47,006 nt of DNA from a virus. Taxonomy: Duplodnaviria > Heunggongvirae > Uroviricota > Caudoviricetes. The stretch lies in the IMG/VR virus record IMGVR_UViG_2925903241_000004; one strand, 5' to 3'. The notes under the pieces were generated by a model. The model saw nothing but the letters and a program-made list of their open reading frames with translations. It did not search any database and was not told the DNA's origin. Positions 4,500 through 46,475 of this stretch are shown here, piece after piece; position 1 is the first letter of the stretch; each line of letters begins with the position of its first letter. A program made the translations under genes and the position numbers.

Positions 4500-4557
4500 A
4501 AAAAGGGCGGCAGAGCAGTCACGGAGTAAAACTGATACCGCCAAACGTCACCAGAAA
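4500..4557 (-). ncRNA. dicF: DicF small regulatory RNA (ftsZ-targeting sRNA)
   Basis: Reverse complement of 4500-4557 reads TTTCTGGTGACGTTTGGCGGTATCAGTTTTACTCCGTGACTGCTCTGCCGCCCTTTTT, matching the DicF sequence as I recall it, including its 3' hairpin and U-tract. Confidence 0.75.
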
Positions 4558-12939: not shown

Positions 12940-13198
12940 ATACAGCGAACGCCATTGGTTTAGTTGGATATTTACTGTGCCGGACAAAAACGGTTTGCGG
13001 GGAAATCTTAGTTAAGTAGAATGACTGCGGGTGCTTGAGGCTATCTGTCTCAGGCATGAACACCAAAAGGCAGATAGAGAAAAGCCCCAGTTAACATTAC
13101 GCGTCCTGCAAGACGCTTAACATTAATCTGAGGCTCAATCTATGAACGGCAAATCTAGGTTAGCCTCTTACGTGCCGAAAGGCAAGGAGAAGCAGGCT

Positions 13199-13354
13199 AT
13201 GAAGCAGCAAAAGGCGATGTTAATCGCCCTGATCGTCATCTGTTTAACCGTCATTGTGACGGCACTGGTAACGAGGAAAGACCTCTGCGAGGTACGAATC
13301 CGAACCGGCCAGACGGAGGTCGCTGTCTTCACAGCTTACGAACCTGAGGAGTAA
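13199..13354 (+). CDS. hok: Hok/Gef-family type I toxin (HokD/RelF-like)
   Basis: 51-aa product MKQQKAMLIALIVICLTVIVTALVTRKDLCEVRIRTGQTEVAVFTAYEPEE matches the Hok family; AGGAGA RBS; an in-frame upstream extension (from 13142) is open. Confidence 0.85.
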   Translation: MKQQKAMLIALIVICLTVIVTALVTRKDLCEVRIRTGQTEVAVFTAYEPEE

Positions 13355-14860: not shown

Positions 14861-15241
14861 ATGACTGAACGCATAGAATTTGTTTTGCCTTACCCGCCGA
14901 CGGTGAATACCTACTGGCGACGTCATGGCAATACGTATTTCATCTCGGAGGCCGGAAAGCGTTATCGCCGTGATGTGGCGCTAATTGTTCGCCAGCAGCG
15001 GCTGAAATTAAACCTGTCCGGAAGGCTGGCGATAAAGGTGATTGCAGAGCCACCGGATAAGCGTCGTCGCGACCTGGACAATATCCTGAAAGCACCGCTG
15101 GATGCGCTGACGCATGCGGGAGTGTTAATGGACGATGAGCAGTTTGATGAAATCAATATCGTTCGTGGTCAGCCAGTATCTGGTGGACGTCTGGGGGTGA
15201 AGATTTACCCCATAATGCATGAAGAGCAGGTCAAAAAATGA
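14861..15241 (+). CDS. rusA: Holliday junction resolvase RusA
   Basis: 126-aa ORF; LPYPPTVNTYWR ... RRRDLDN motifs match the RusA family; start immediately follows the previous stop. Confidence 0.8.
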   Translation: MTERIEFVLPYPPTVNTYWRRHGNTYFISEAGKRYRRDVALIVRQQRLKLNLSGRLAIKVIAEPPDKRRRDLDNILKAPLDALTHAGVLMDDEQFDEINIVRGQPVSGGRLGVKIYPIMHEEQVKK

Positions 15242-16059
15242 AACTGGAAGATTTACCGAAATACTACTCCCCAAAATCCCCTGGCCTGACCGATGCATCG
15301 GCCTCAACGTCAAAAGATGCGCTGAGTATCACTGATGTGATGGCCGCGCAGGGCATGACACAGAATCGGGCTGAGATGGGGTTTTCTGCGTTCCTGGGGA
15401 AAATGGGCATCAGTATGAATGACAGGGCGCGGGCAACAGAATTACTGGCAGATTATGCACTCAGTCGGTGCGATCGTGTTGCGGCGTTGAGAAAACTTCC
15501 GGCAGAAATAAAACCGTTAGTGATGCGCATTATGGCTTCGTACGCTTTTGAGGATTATGCCCGCAGCGCAGCGAGTAAAAAGCAGTGCCCTTGTTGCTAT
15601 GGGGAAAAATTTATTGAAAGCGTAGTTTTTACAAACAAGGTCCAGTATCCGGATGGTAAGCCGCCGGTATGGGCAAAGTGTACGAAAGGTGTGTATTCGT
15701 CTTACTGGGAAGAATGGAAAAAAGTCAGGGAGGTGGTAAAAGTTGCCTGTCCGGAGTGTGGCGGAAAGGGTGAGGTTTCCACCGCCTGTAAGGATTGCCG
15801 TGGGCGTGGTGTCGCCATTCATCGTGAAGAGTCGGTAAAACGTGGTATGCCTGTTATCAGAGACTGCCAGCGTTGTGGTGGTCGTGGCTATGAAAGACTA
15901 CCATCAACGGAGACATTTAATGCTATATGCGAGGTGACAAACCAGATAACACGCGCGTCATGGGAAAAAACAGTTAAGAAATTCTATGATGCGCTGGTGA
16001 CCCGGTTTGATATTGAAGAAGCATGGGCTGAGCGGCAGTTAAAAAAGGTAACTAGGTAA
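15238..16059 (+). CDS. Late-gene antiterminator Q-like protein (QuuQ-like) with CxxCxGxG zinc-finger repeats
   Basis: 273-aa ORF overlapping the rusA stop (ATGA); last regulatory gene before pR'/tR', the tRNA and the lysis genes; several CxxC pairs (CPECGGKG, CKDCRGRG, CQRCGGRG). Confidence 0.65.
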   Translation: MKLEDLPKYYSPKSPGLTDASASTSKDALSITDVMAAQGMTQNRAEMGFSAFLGKMGISMNDRARATELLADYALSRCDRVAALRKLPAEIKPLVMRIMASYAFEDYARSAASKKQCPCCYGEKFIESVVFTNKVQYPDGKPPVWAKCTKGVYSSYWEEWKKVREVVKVACPECGGKGEVSTACKDCRGRGVAIHREESVKRGMPVIRDCQRCGGRGYERLPSTETFNAICEVTNQITRASWEKTVKKFYDALVTRFDIEEAWAERQLKKVTR

Positions 16060-16065
16060 CAAGGT

Positions 16066-16094
16066 TGATTTTTCCGGAATCTGTGGTAAATTCG
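16066..16094 (+). promoter_or_regulatory. Putative late promoter pR' (TTGATT-16-TAAATT)
   Basis: -35 TTGATT at 16066-16071 and -10 TAAATT at 16088-16093 immediately downstream of Q; lambda pR' also uses a TAAATT -10 as I recall. Confidence 0.4.
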
Positions 16095-16141
16095 TCATAA
16101 TAATGGGCTTTTTATGCCTGACGTTAGAAGAGTTTCTACAA

Positions 16142-16170
16142 CCCGCCGCCGAGCGGGTTTTTTATTGCGG
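16142..16170 (+). terminator. Putative tR'-like intrinsic terminator
   Basis: CCCGC-loop-GCGGG hairpin followed by TTTTTTATT, about 50 nt downstream of the putative pR'. Confidence 0.5.
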
Positions 16171-16202
16171 AATTAATTACGGACCGTTATTATTCTACTC
16201 CC

Positions 16203-16278
16203 GGCCCTTTAGCTCAGTGGTGAGAGCGAGCGACTCATAATCGCCAGGTCGCTGGTTCAAATCCAGCAAGGGCCACCA
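16203..16278 (+). tRNA. ileZ: tRNA with anticodon CAT, tRNA-Ile2 (ileZ/ileX-like) by similarity
   Basis: 76-nt cloverleaf folded by hand: acceptor GGCCCTT/AAGGGCC, D-stem GCTC/GAGC, anticodon loop CTCATAA, T-arm GCTGG-TTCAAAT-CCAGC, discriminator A and encoded CCA. Confidence 0.9.
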
Positions 16279-16383
16279 TCACAAACCGCCATTAGCTTAT
16301 CAGGAAGAGCAGACGACACGATAACAGGGTTGTTGGTGCGGGGGCGGGTCCCCGATGGCGGTCCATTATCGGTATTCAGCGTT

Positions 16384-16450
16384 GTTAGCTCAGCCGGGCA
16401 GAGCAATTGCCTTCTAAGCAGCTGTGGTTGCACTCCTGTTGTTTCTGGTG
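16384..16450 (+). other. Degenerate tRNA-Arg(UCU)-like remnant
   Basis: TAGCTCAGCCGGGCAGAGCA D-arm and CCTTCTAAG anticodon loop resemble tRNA-Arg, but no acceptor 3' strand or canonical T-arm (GGTTCGAATCC) could be paired by hand. Confidence 0.3.
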
Positions 16451-16599
16451 GTGATGGTGGACTTCAGCAGCCGGATAATGTCGGTGCTGTCTGATGGTGT
16501 TTTGGTGGCGGGTGTGTGGTTGTTGCTTTCCCGTTGCTGAAAAAGAAAGCATCAGGCGATTAGCAGGGTATCAGTTACCCGTTGAAATTTTTAAATACC

Positions 16600-16820
16600 T
16601 CACAATTCCACAGCTTGATGATTGTCTGGCTGCCGGAGAATTTGTTAAAAATTACATCGCATGGTGAATCCCCCTCAGCGGCGGGGCATCTGGCAAAGTG
16701 TATGATCCAGAGAACATGCAAATTCAGTAGACAGGCTGAATTTACCGGGAGGCCCCTGGCACCATGCGACAGACAGAAATTAGGCTATACTTCAGCCCCT
16801 CTCCGGAGGGGCTTTTCTGT
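16600..16820 (+). repeat. Repeat unit A (promoter-like element ... strong terminator)
   Basis: Shares with unit B the blocks attgtctggc..cgg.ga.tttgttaaaaa..cgcatggtgaatccccct, gaattcaccgggaggc.cc.ggcaccatgc and terminal cagcccctctccggaggggct hairpin plus T-run. Confidence 0.5.
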
Positions 16821-17069
16821 GCAGGATGTGTCACAGTTTCCTGAATTCTGAGTACTGTCCTGTTACTCAGGGTGCTATATTTTCTGACGTGATGAAAGTC
16901 TGCCGGAAGGCGGAACGTATCGGAAATGACCCAGTAGAGAAAACGTTGACTCAGATACCGATGCTGAGTTACCGGGAAACCGGCATCACATGACCGCTAT
17001 CCTTCCAGGCTCGCTCCGGCGGGCCTTTTTACTGCAGAAAACAGTTTTCCCGTAAAATGCCACGTTGCT

Positions 17070-17285
17070 CATAATTCAGGCTGGCGATTATTGTCTGGCC
17101 GGCGGGAAGTTTGTTAAAAAATTTCGCATGGTGAATCCCCCTGTGCGGAGGGGTAATCAGCGAGTAGGTATATGGGATAATCGCGGATTCAGGTGCTGGT
17201 ACTGAATTCACCGGGAGGCACCCGGCACCATGCAATGGCACATAGCGCCACTCTCCAGCCCCTCTCCGGAGGGGCTGTTTATATT
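17070..17285 (+). repeat. Repeat unit B (second diverged copy of unit A)
   Basis: Same conserved blocks as unit A with different internal sequence; ends in an identical GCCCCTC-TCCG-GAGGGGC hairpin at 17258-17282. Confidence 0.5.
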
Positions 17286-17311
17286 GATTTTGTCAGATGT
17301 GAGTAAACTCC

Positions 17312-17647
17312 TTATGGACTTTGTTGTTTTAGTCCATAAGGACATATTTGCAGAATGCAACGGTTATTAAAGCATTCATTCAATACGTTATCTGTATTTG
17401 TAGGGCATTCCTGGCTGTTTTTGATTAAATTCCAGAATGTTTTATTGAATGGTACTACGTTGTAAATGGTTACAGGTAGCACTTTGTTATTGAGCATGAT
17501 ACCTGTGTGAGTCAGTGTAAATATACTTTCAGGAGGTAAGAAAGCATCCGATTGATACCAGATTATTAATTTTACTTTACTCCATATGACTGAAAAAGAT
17601 ATTCCGCATGATGGCTGGATAACTGTATCAATTACAATCCACTTCAT
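17312..17647 (-). CDS. Hypothetical Cys-rich protein encoded in AT-rich moron
   Basis: 111-aa ORF; ATG at 17647 preceded by AAGGAAG; low GC by eye (~35%) against ~50% flanks; six Cys concentrated in the C-terminal half; transcribed opposite to the late operon. Confidence 0.45.
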
Positions 17648-17907
17648 TTAGCTTCCTTGTTTATGCCTTGCTGGTGATGTTCTGAAAAGTATAAATGATA
17701 TTTTTGAATATAAACCATAGAGCAGAATTATTTTTCTGATGTTGTTTATTGTTTATTTAAATGCAGGGTGGTTTATATCTCGTCTTGTAGTTTATCCATG
17801 CATATCTGCTTGATGATCAGGTTTCTATTTAAGGTATGGTTTTGTGTTTTTTCTGTGTTACATGTCTGGTATTTTAAAGAATTATTTTTCAGATGGTGGA
17901 AAGAACC

Positions 17908-20060: not shown

Positions 20061-20354
20061 TTATTGTGAGCAATACACACGCGCTTCCAGTGGAGTATAA
20101 ATGCCTAAAGTAATAAAACCGAGAAATCCATTTACGAATGTTTGCTGGGTTTCTGTTTTAACAACATTTTCTGCGCCGCCACAAATTTTGGCTGCATCAA
20201 CAGTTTTCTCCTGTCCAATTCCCGAAACGAAGAAATGATGGGTGATGGTTTCCTTTGGTGTTACTGCTGTCGGTTTGTTTCCAACAGTAAACGTCTGTTG
20301 AGCACATCCTGTAATAAGCATTGCCAGAGCGGCAGAAAACAACATTTTTTTCAT
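20061..20354 (-). CDS. bor: Bor lipoprotein (serum-resistance-associated)
   Basis: 97-aa product MKKMLFSAALAMLITGCAQQTFTVGNKP... closely matches lambda Bor; lipobox LITGC. Confidence 0.9.
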   Translation of the reverse strand: MKKMLFSAALAMLITGCAQQTFTVGNKPTAVTPKETITHHFFVSGIGQEKTVDAAKICGGAENVVKTETQQTFVNGFLGFITLGIYTPLEARVYCSQ

Positions 20355-42992: not shown

Positions 42993-45735
<2,743 letters not shown>

Positions 45736-46153
45736 CGTAAGTAAAATCAGCCACCCACAGCTGGTCAGGTCGTTCTGCCACGAACTGACGGTTTACGCGG
45801 TCGCCTGCGGCAACGGCTTTCCGGCTGATGGTCGTACGGACCTTTTTACCCCGGAGAACACCGGCAAGTCCCATAACCGCCATGAGACGTGCCACAGTGC
45901 ATCTGGCCACTCTGATACCTTCCCGTAACAACTGACGCCAGACTTTACGCACACCGTATACCTTGTGATTTTCATCGTATACGCGCTGTATCTCTTTCTT
46001 CAGCCAGTCATCGCGCTGCGCACGGGCACTGCGTTTATCCGGATGATGTCGCTGTTGCTGACAGTGGTAATACGTTGACGGGGCAATATGCAGTTCGCTG
46101 CATAGCGGTCCGACCCCGTACTGCTCACGCAGCTTATCCAGCAGTGGCATCAT
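45736..46153 (-). pseudogene. IS3-family transposase OrfB, N-terminal exon (upstream of intron)
   Basis: Encodes ...YGVRKVWRQLLREGIRVARCTVARLM...DQLWVADFTY then runs into intron sequence; overlaps the orfA 3' end as expected for an OrfAB frameshift arrangement. Confidence 0.8.
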
Positions 46154-46475
46154 TTTTTCCAGAGGCGGTCGAACTCCGCCTTCGCAAAATAAGCGGAAGC
46201 CTGGCGAAGGATATCGTTACTGCGGCGCAGTTCACGATTTTCACGTTCCAGCTCTTTCAGACGCTGACGTTCAGCGGTGGTGAGCCCTCCATCACCGCCC
46301 CCGGTATCCCGCTCATGCTGGCGAACCCAGACACGCAGAGTCTCCGGCGTACAGCCAATCTTTGGAGCAATGGAACAAATTGTCGCCCATTGTGAGTCAT
46401 ATTCGCTCTGACTTTCCAGAACCATACGGACTGCCCGTTGACGGACTTCGGGGAAAAACGAGTATTTTTAGTCAT
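46150..46475 (-). pseudogene. IS629-like OrfA, frameshifted near the N-terminus
   Basis: MTKNTRFSP (from ATG 46475) and the rest ([34 protein letters not shown]...) are in different frames; break maps to the G-run 46452-46455; recalled IS629 has one more C here (TTTTCCCCCGAAG). Confidence 0.75.

Follow-up and report, generated by a model that had tools for sequence, protein, structure and literature searches.

We analysed a 47,006-nucleotide (nt) stretch of viral DNA (IMG/VR record IMGVR_UViG_2925903241_000004, Caudoviricetes), here called the window, and in particular its 1241-nt interval 16060-17300. The window is a lambdoid Escherichia coli prophage and the interval is the leader that runs from its Q antiterminator gene to its lysis genes. 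Along the plus strand of this leader lie a late promoter (pR') with its terminator (tR'), an intact transfer RNA (tRNA) gene followed by two tRNA wrecks, a small open reading frame (ORF) of the DUF3927 family and three tandem units, A, B and C, which appear to be small RNA (sRNA) genes of the STnc100/PasD kind. We hold the identity of these parts to be nearly certain, and we are fairly confident of the account as a whole, sRNA mechanism included, in which the interval is a “moron slot” in the late-operon leader of a lambda-Q-type prophage. Loci of this kind are already known; what we add is a third paralogue, a second tRNA wreck, comparative support for pR', and a pseudoknotted core together with sub-threshold relatives. 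A first-pass annotation, made from the letters of the window alone, had placed its features correctly: each item that it listed is found where it was put.

Gene order and occurrence of the interval

The RefSeq annotation of an identical copy, taken together with Pfam matches, gives the order DUF968, RusA, antitermination protein, tRNA-Ile, DUF3927 protein, a stretch with no gene, an IraM-like gene on the minus strand and DUF1737, followed by an S21-type holin, YdfR, lysozyme, Rz and Iss/Bor. Inside the interval, RefSeq lists three features only: a tRNA-Ile, the DUF3927 protein and a single pseudo-ORF. The interval lacks an stx-like ORF, as the first-pass annotation had remarked; in Shiga toxin (Stx) phages, stx is located between the tRNAs and an STnc100 copy (PMC12370729). 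The interval contains 11 terminator-like sites, against 2.6 ± 1.5 in shuffled sequences. Several hundred complete E. coli chromosomes, as well as four induced-phage records, contain a copy that is 100% identical. At least 80% of the interval, in this arrangement, is carried by 394 complete E. coli genomes, and partial matches extend to 3346 of 5426 such genomes, at up to 16 places per genome.

Three tandem STnc100/PasD-type units

The Rfam search that the first-pass annotation had proposed yields, besides the intact tRNA (72.5 bits), three matches to STnc100 (RF02076; gathering score 47 bits). Units A and C match over the full model, with 138 bits (E = 1.7e-31) and 132.5 bits (E = 4.3e-30), and a third match between them (16858-17033, 30 bits, E = 7e-4) corresponds to unit B. 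Two diverged units had been described before, each with a TTGTCT-17-TTAAAAA block and an identical terminator. This description holds for A and C, which share the block and the terminator GCCCCTCTCCGGAGGGGC and are 83-93% identical in blocks and 71% identical as whole units. The count of two does not hold, as B, only about 56% identical to A and C, had been missed. Of the two interpretations then offered, “small RNA genes of about 150-180 nt” is the one that agrees with membership in STnc100, a family with published transcripts and Hfq binding.

The promoter of copy A (16622-16651) consists of a -35 element TTGTCT (16622-27) and an extended -10 element TGtTAAAAA (16643-51), and precedes an RNA of about 160 nt (16659-16818). 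That of copy C (17091-17120; TTGTCT at 17091-96, TGtTAAAAA at 17112-20) precedes an RNA of about 158 nt (17126-17283). In both, the extended -10 lies 18 nt past TTGTCT; it ends 7 nt before P1, the first helix of the RNA, in A and about 5-7 nt before it in C. Across the family, 42 unique upstream sequences conserve the promoter block of A and C. In copy B (16889-17031, about 143 nt), a diverged paralogue that is STnc100/PasD-like, an extended -10, TGcTATATT (16873-16881), lies 7 nt 5' of the first base of P1; it is better than that of A and C and stands in the same register as in A. The 5' end of PasD1, a published relative from enteropathogenic E. coli (EPEC), has been estimated from RNA sequencing (RNA-seq) at NC_011601 position 1060260 (PMC8550237 table S6). 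It is the G of GCAUGGUG, and the spacing from -10 to +1 in copy A equals that of PasD1. Because the units are homologous to PasD1 at this point, transcription would start at 16659 (A), 16889 (B) and about 17126 (C). If the PasD1 end applies, the first ~30 positions of the Rfam STnc100 model would be promoter DNA, not RNA.

Further upstream, a block at 16598-16627 and 17067-17096 (about -60 to -32) reads CTCACAATTCAG-N4-5-TTGAC-N-GTTGTCTG and is as conserved as the RNA core in the 42 upstream sequences. Some family copies have TGTTA-N6-TCACA centred near -62, resembling a class I CRP site whose right half is good and whose left half is poor; in the copies of the window the site is weak. In some family copies, an inverted repeat CAGGCA...TGCCTG spans the -35 element. 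A candidate minus-strand promoter inside both outer units (TTAACA-16-GACAAT) was discarded, as its -10 reads GACAAC in most family members.

A pseudoknotted 5' domain supported by covariation

Minimum free energy (MFE) folds, computed independently for A, B and C, share the helices P1, P2, P4 and P5 and the terminator. In copy A, they comprise P1 (16659-66/16760-67), P4 (16720-28/16735-43) and P5 (16745-59), followed by a linker (16768-93) and the terminator (16794-16813). In copy B, P1 (16889-94/16984-89), P2 (16899-16914), a pseudoknot (16917-23/16958-64), P4 (16948-70) and P5 (16972-83) precede the terminator (17007-26), and copy C has P1 (17126-33/17226-33), the pseudoknot (17156-62/17194-17200), P4 (17185-17209), P5 (17211-25), a linker (17234-55) and the terminator (17256-77). 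The linkers, 17-26 nt long and of copy-specific sequence, are unpaired in the MFE folds of A and B; in the fold of C, part of the linker pairs. The U-tails of the three terminators are short or interrupted (4, 5 and 3+ U).

We collected 72 unique cores and aligned 29 diverse ones with MAFFT. Across P1, P2, P4 and P5 of these 29, 92.6% of cells pair, compared with 80.8 ± 0.8% after column shuffles and 40-48% when partners are slid. Double-sided changes affect seven of the eight P1 pairs, all eight P4 pairs and 16 of the 26 pairs overall, and the sequences of P2 and P5 are almost invariant. Copy B fits the same pattern. Its P1 reads GUGAUG/CAUCAC where A and C have AUGGUG/CACCAU, a difference of two compensated pairs; its P2, P4, P5 and terminator retain pairing with different sequences; and in a second allele of B (locus L009) P2 and the terminator differ once more and still pair. 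Copy B is thus a diverged paralogue, not a wreck.

In almost every member of the family, the strand directly 3' of P2 is complementary to the loop of P4, forming a pseudoknot with at least 12 different helix sequences, such as AUCAGCA/UGCUGAU, CUGGUG/CACCGG, ACUGGAUA/UAUCCAGU and CCAGUC/GACUGG. The pairs are UAUCGG/CCGAUG in copy B, AUCAGCG/UGCUGGU in copy C and AAUGAUC/GAUCAUU in PasD. Since the MAFFT register shifts between subfamilies and makes a column-wise count impossible, a register-free permutation test was used. Over 31 distinct loops, cognate partners score 6.32 on average, against 4.23 ± 0.19 when re-paired, and none of 5000 permutations attains 6.32; the test is uncorrected for relatedness, but a large number of different helix sequences occur. 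The pseudoknot is absent from the Rfam STnc100 structure line, and a 2026 preprint (bioRxiv 10.64898/2026.05.13.724894) does not mention it and presents RNAalifold models without it.

The 5' domain is composed of P1, a GAAU junction, the P2 hairpin (loop U-N-N-GCGG), the pseudoknot and a near-invariant CACCGGGAGGCACCCGGCAC. STnc100 and PasD have it in common with the middle copy, which is sub-threshold, and with relatives that are unannotated. It is found in two settings, either as arrays of 2-6 copies in the late leader, with a promoter and terminator of its own, or without a terminator directly before a small ORF by a cI-like repressor.

Published relatives

Several members of the family have been studied in pathogenic strains, and the RNAs of such relatives are reported to build up in lysogens. 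EDL933 has 11 STnc100 copies, most of them transcribed and one positive on Northern blots (PMC5331693), and the copy downstream of stx2B overlaps the Hfq-crosslinked sRNA EcOnc27/sRNA103 (PMC12711010, PMC7873438). Tree et al. found such sRNAs between the Q-dependent promoter and the lysis genes in at least eight Sakai prophages, and described dyads (PMC4104026). Hfq binding of relatives has been detected by cross-linking and analysis of cDNA (CRAC) and by ligation and sequencing of interacting RNAs (RIL-seq) (PMC4104026, PMC7873438, PMC8550237), and an RpoD signal by chromatin immunoprecipitation with exonuclease digestion (ChIP-exo) at STnc100 copies of Salmonella LT2 (PMC10794520). PasD has been seen by Northern blot and RNA-seq; RIL-seq gives it partners in trans, with chimeras to many mRNAs and a seed UGUGAG in the linker before the terminator (PMC8550237). 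A discrete transcript of ~160-200 nt is therefore on record for other copies, from the STnc100 Northern blot (PMC5331693) and from the Northern blot and RNA-seq of PasD (PMC8550237). That STnc100 and PasD are related has already been proposed (bioRxiv 10.64898/2026.05.13.724894). PasD1 and PasD2 score 38-41 bits against the STnc100 model, below the threshold like copy B.

The units of the window share with STnc100/EcOnc27/sRNA103 the position in the late leader, the orientation and the terminator (PMC4104026, PMC12370729), A and C scoring about threefold the threshold. They differ from STnc100/EcOnc27 of enterohaemorrhagic E. coli in forming three tandem copies, in the lack of stx and in having an iraM-like gene instead of a convergent partner of the AsxR/AgvB type. 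With PasD1 and PasD2 of EPEC E2348/69 (EcOnc13), they have in common the 5' start GCAUGGUGAAUCC, P1, P2, P4 and the pseudoknot, as well as the position after a DUF3927 ORF behind a lambda-family Q. Unlike them, PasD has no P5 hairpin and a different linker and terminator, and the Pas copies are dispersed according to the preprint (bioRxiv 10.64898/2026.05.13.724894), whereas those of the window stand in tandem.

Distribution of the family

Among the 113 viral loci with a match, the STnc100 element is on the same strand and between RusA/Q and DUF1737/holin/lysozyme wherever flanking genes are identifiable, and 8 show the “full, weak, full” pattern of copies seen here. Scanning viral contigs with the 3' motif CCGGGAGGCACCCGGCA gave 198 instances, 150 of which have GUGAAUCCCCC at the expected distance; the remainder carry compensated P2 variants, for example CCUUUC...GAAAGG. 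Tandem arrays of 3-6 STnc100-like units are found in L259 (342-1038) and L268, both with a period of ~253 nt, and in L292 (4349-5513 and 8357-8555) and L006 (2269-3375). An sRNA of the isrI family adjoins STnc100-like units in L292, L266 and L252.

A relative of another kind lies at L261 9732-9939. It scores 35 bits, below the threshold, has a 19-bp P1 and an intact pseudoknot, and has no terminator; L264, L289 and L317 hold similar elements. A cI/LexA-like repressor gene lies upstream of the L261 element, and a Shine-Dalgarno (SD) sequence with a small hydrophobic ORF comes directly after it, a context like that of a 5' untranslated region. Neither the units of the window nor the elements of the L261 type match any other Rfam family at E <= 1. 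When a genome collection was scanned with the 14-mer ATGGTGAATCCCCC, chance matches from unrelated phyla dominated the outcome, and the only usable match was in Atlantibacter (L177); the Phytobacter locus L174 has no nhmmer match. IpeX, the sRNA that occupies the same slot in DLP12, was rejected as a relative, since K-12 572500-579500 contains neither an nhmmer match nor the core motif.

The family is very common in E. coli, and variants of a copy located downstream of stx2 overlap with sequence features predictive of haemolytic uraemic syndrome (PMC12711010). Copies A and C would already be labelled by Rfam-based pipelines such as Bakta. Annotation based on thresholds misses sub-threshold paralogues like copy B and tandem arrays, so that copy numbers are undercounted, and neither the Rfam structure line nor the RNAalifold models of the 2026 preprint capture the covariation-supported pseudoknot and the near-invariant hairpins.

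The Q gene, its late promoter and tR'

The Q gene (15238-16059, plus strand) codes for a 273-aa protein matching PF03589 (E = 1.2e-54; RefSeq “antitermination protein”), the Pfam family to which lambda Q likewise belongs. The two proteins align end to end with 30% identity (BLASTP, E = 1e-38). Relative to lambda Q, the protein of the window has a 66-aa cysteine-rich insertion with two further CxxC...CxxC motifs and a weak DnaJ CXXCXGXG match. This DnaJ-like insertion probably explains the annotation “Fels-1 prophage chaperone” in the Pas preprint.

The promoter pR' (16065-16107, plus strand) begins six bases past the Q stop codon and has a qut-like layout, with a -35 element TTGATT (16065-70), a 16-nt spacer, a -10 element TAAATT (16087-92), an inferred +1 near 16099, a -10-like pause element AATAAT (16099-16104) and GGG (16105-07). 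Written in full it is TTGATT-16-TAAATT-CGTCAT-AATAAT-GGG, that is, TTGATT-16-TAAATT-N6-AATAATGGG, to be compared with TTGACT-17-TAAATT-TGACTC-AACGAT-GGG in lambda. Work of the Roberts laboratory on sigma70-dependent promoter-proximal pausing identified the lambda AACGAT, at +1 to +6, as the -10-like element that pauses polymerase for Q loading. The terminator tR' (16140-16166, plus strand) has a 7-bp G+C-rich stem (16140-16159) followed by TTTTTTATT.

We extracted the DNA 3' of the stop codon for every Q homologue in the fetched loci. Behind homologues with 30-100% identity the same layout recurs: TTGAYT, a conserved spacer, a -10 element, a TAAYNATGGG-like block and a short hairpin with a T-run. 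The spacer motif between -35 and -10, TTT[GC]CCGAA..TGT, is conserved behind these homologues and is unlike the lambda spacer; tR' keeps its position there, and its stem sequences vary and remain complementary. The reading of pR' and tR' put forward in the first-pass annotation is thus well supported, by the lambda-family Q upstream, by the lambda layout and by recurrence behind Q homologues. The pR'-tR' transcript would be ~68 nt long, and by analogy Q would let polymerase read through tR'. Compared with the pR'-qut-tR' region of lambda (6S RNA), the Q family, the -10 TAAATT, the N6 spacing and the -10-like pause element followed by GGG are the same. By contrast, tR' is ~45-65 nt from the start instead of 194 nt, the spacer sequence, where the Q-binding element is expected, differs, and Q has its 66-aa insertion. 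The terminated transcript is short here, and so is StxS of Stx phages, which is named in PMC7873438. Sy et al. (2020) reportedly found StxS to be 74 nt long. A sub-threshold match of Trp_leader to 16060-16166 (25.7 bits, E = 0.039) was set aside as driven by the terminator.

A model for the leader and its alternatives

By analogy with lambda, polymerase would start at pR' near 16099 and pause at AATAAT-GGG, where Q would load. Without Q, it would stop at tR' and release the RNA of ~68 nt; with Q, it would read through all the terminators of the interval into the lysis genes. Units A (16659-16818), B (16889-17031) and C (17126-17283) would be transcribed as tandem STnc100/PasD genes, each from its own promoter to its own terminator. 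Each RNA would begin with P1 and fold into a compact 5' domain of P1, P2, pseudoknot, P4 and P5, continued by the linker and the intrinsic terminator. The copy-specific linkers may be seeds that pair with mRNAs in trans on Hfq, as is suggested by EcOnc27/sRNA103 and PasD, and we consider this trans-acting mechanism rather likely for A, B and C. Inside the window, the linkers find only complementary 10-11-mers, which is the level of chance. The pseudoknotted 5' domain, which would start at nucleotide 1, likely stabilises the RNA. This fits the behaviour of PasD in a delta-hfq strain, where PasD1 and PasD2 change by -0.18 and +0.55 (log2 fold change) while PasA, PasB and PasC drop 4- to 100-fold (PMC8550237 table S2). 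In the lysogen, the three sRNA terminators may also protect the lysis genes against read-through until Q is made.

Several observations weigh against parts of this model. Copy B lies below the gathering score of the family, and the transcript ends of A, B and C are inferred from homology to PasD1. Further points are the weak -35 elements and, in copy C, an interrupted U-tract. The near-invariance of P2 and P5 would be unusual for a mere scaffold. In copy A, the pseudoknot is broken (CUGGC at 16690-94 against the loop AGACAG at 16729-34, which is AGCCAG in its closest relative, GCCAG having become GACAG) and the P5 loop is AGGCC, alone among the 72 unique cores, the others having AGGCA. Because of this broken pseudoknot and unique P5 loop, copy A may be decaying. 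Concerning Hfq, the main text of PMC8550237 lumps all Pas sRNAs as Hfq-dependent in stability, but for PasD “Hfq-dependent” holds for binding, not for stability. Finally, no direct target has been validated for any STnc100 member (PMC7873438).

Two alternatives concern the nature of the units themselves. The first-pass annotation had suggested that they could be duplicated late-promoter/terminator modules, in effect extra pR'-tR' copies where Q loads. The units do sit in the late leader, and each consists of a promoter, ~160 nt and a strong terminator, a size near that of the lambda pR'-tR' 6S RNA (~194 nt). However, the true pR', with its lambda-type pause element and conserved spacer, is directly behind Q, and the promoters of the units have neither this spacer nor a pause element, their +1 leading instead into GCAUGGUGAAUCC, which is part of P1. 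Moreover, the family occurs behind lambda-type Q (PF03589) and, according to annotation and literature, behind the PF06530-type Q of Stx phages (PMC12370729). A loading site specific to one Q would not be transferable from one Q family to another, and so we do not retain the suggestion, giving it a very small chance. We judge just as slim the chance that the units code for small proteins, either a leaderless MVNPP... peptide from an AUG at +3 or an ORF whose AUG lies in the P1 3' strand, after GGGAGG. The AUGGUG start gives 14 aa in A and 25 aa in C, CACCAUG opens ORFs of 26 and 46 aa, and ribosome coverage values exceed 1 at some EDL933 copies (PMC5331693). Against this, the peptides of the three copies vary in length and sequence outside the portion that RNA helices constrain, the small ORFs are not conserved, and the ORF from the P1 3' strand passes the terminator, so that the terminated RNA has no stop codon for it. 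Distant members even lack that AUG and keep P1 by compensatory changes.

Two other alternatives accept the units as they are drawn but deny them a role as sRNAs. The 5' domain could be a cis-acting sensor, a riboswitch-like or protein-binding leader whose terminator decides whether transcription begun at the unit promoters goes on into the genes downstream, the abundant “sRNA” being a terminated by-product. Such a sensor would agree with the layout (a promoter, then a conserved complex fold whose loops are near-invariant, a short linker and a terminator), with the arrays of 3-6 tandem copies found elsewhere, with the terminator-less L261 relative directly before an SD and a small ORF, and with a PasD level independent of Hfq. 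Yet copy C is followed in the window by the convergent iraM-like gene, and at many loci the sequence after the terminator, AAAAAAGCCCGC..., resembles the terminator of a convergent gene, convergent sRNA dyads having been published (PMC4104026). A conserved anti-terminator is also lacking: the candidate examined, P2 3' strand GGAGGGGC with the 5' arm of the terminator, is possible in A and C and absent in PasD and distant members, as is the similarity of the P2 3' strand to the 3' arm of the terminator. In addition, no Rfam riboswitch or ribozyme matches at E <= 1, and PasD has trans partners in RIL-seq (PMC8550237). On balance we find a cis-acting sensor improbable. Slightly more so is the idea that the units are functionless as RNAs, being repeated terminator cassettes or recombination scars that insulate the lysis genes. 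It would account for four strong terminators within 1.2 kb upstream of lethal lysis genes, for the mutations of copy A at otherwise invariant positions and for the decay of the adjacent tRNAs. It would not account for the compensatory changes that preserve P1, P4 and the pseudoknot in lineages with entirely different promoters, linkers and terminators, for a copy B that is ~56% identical to A and C yet retains all helices and a good extended -10, or for published relatives that are abundant and Hfq-bound. Finally, the 5' domain might be a module with a function of its own, for instance a protein-, RNA-polymerase-, ribosome- or ligand-binding fold, in which case the sRNAs would be bifunctional or partly cis-acting instead of plain seed-pairing RNAs; we think this unlikely.

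A decayed tRNA cluster and the DUF3927 ORF

The intact tRNA gene (16203-16278, plus strand) has the anticodon CAT that the first-pass annotation had read, as confirmed by ARAGORN and Rfam, and is a tRNA-Ile2 of the ileZ type, not a tRNA-Met. It is identical to the annotated ileZ of the Stx-type phage Lahn2, and RefSeq also calls it tRNA-Ile. The alignment with an Stx-phage interval, likewise proposed earlier, brings the ileZ-argN-argO cluster of Lahn2 into register with the window and exposes two wrecks where one tRNA-Arg(UCU)-like remnant with a broken 3' half had been described. That remnant is derived from argO (16379-16421, plus strand), its 5' half being near-identical to Lahn2 argO up to CCTTCTAAGCA, in the UCU anticodon loop, beyond which homology ends and the 3' half is replaced. 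The wreck that had escaped notice derives from argN (16286-16365, plus strand); it keeps both acceptor strands and has a scrambled anticodon arm, and it receives no ARAGORN call and no Rfam match at E <= 1. The cluster is therefore a decayed ileZ-argN-argO cluster of the Stx-phage kind in which only ileZ is intact. It has the order, the flanks and the identical ileZ of the clusters of 933W, Lahn2 and Nil3, but differs from them by its argN and argO pseudogenes and by a DUF3927 ORF in the position of stx.

This ORF (16424-16540, plus strand) encodes a hydrophobic protein of 38 aa (PF13064, E = 5.8e-11; RefSeq “DUF3927 family protein”), and its GTG start is three bases past the end of the argO homology. 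The order DUF3927 then sRNA is also found before PasD1 and PasD2 in E2348/69 (L243 1762-1920; L244 1659-1817) and at many viral loci. As DUF3927 recurrently precedes the sRNA and starts 3 nt past the argO break, the data suggest that the two move as one mobile cassette.

Other features of the window

A 111-aa ORF on the minus strand (17312-17647), in an AT-rich stretch of ~17300-17890, converges on copy C; RefSeq names it “anti-adapter protein IraM”, and it has no Pfam match. At this position, other phages appear to carry a convergent sRNA of the AsxR/AgvB type instead, and a perfect 12-bp inverted repeat (17309-17320/17331-17342) lies at its 3' end. Antisense to copy C, RefSeq has a “hypothetical protein” pseudogene or ORF (17116-17241, minus strand), and the same is seen over PasD1 of E2348/69 (L243 2001-2399, minus strand); both calls are probably spurious ORFs on sRNA genes. 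After the lysis cassette comes an iss/bor serum-resistance lipoprotein gene (20061-20354, minus strand; coordinates transferred from the identical RefSeq locus). Further above-threshold Rfam matches in the window are those at 4505-4556 (minus strand), 13029-13204 (plus strand), 43466-43552 (minus strand) and 46079-46195 (minus strand), the families being DicF, sok (beside hokD), a group II intron domain and the ALIL pseudoknot (an IS3-type frameshift element).

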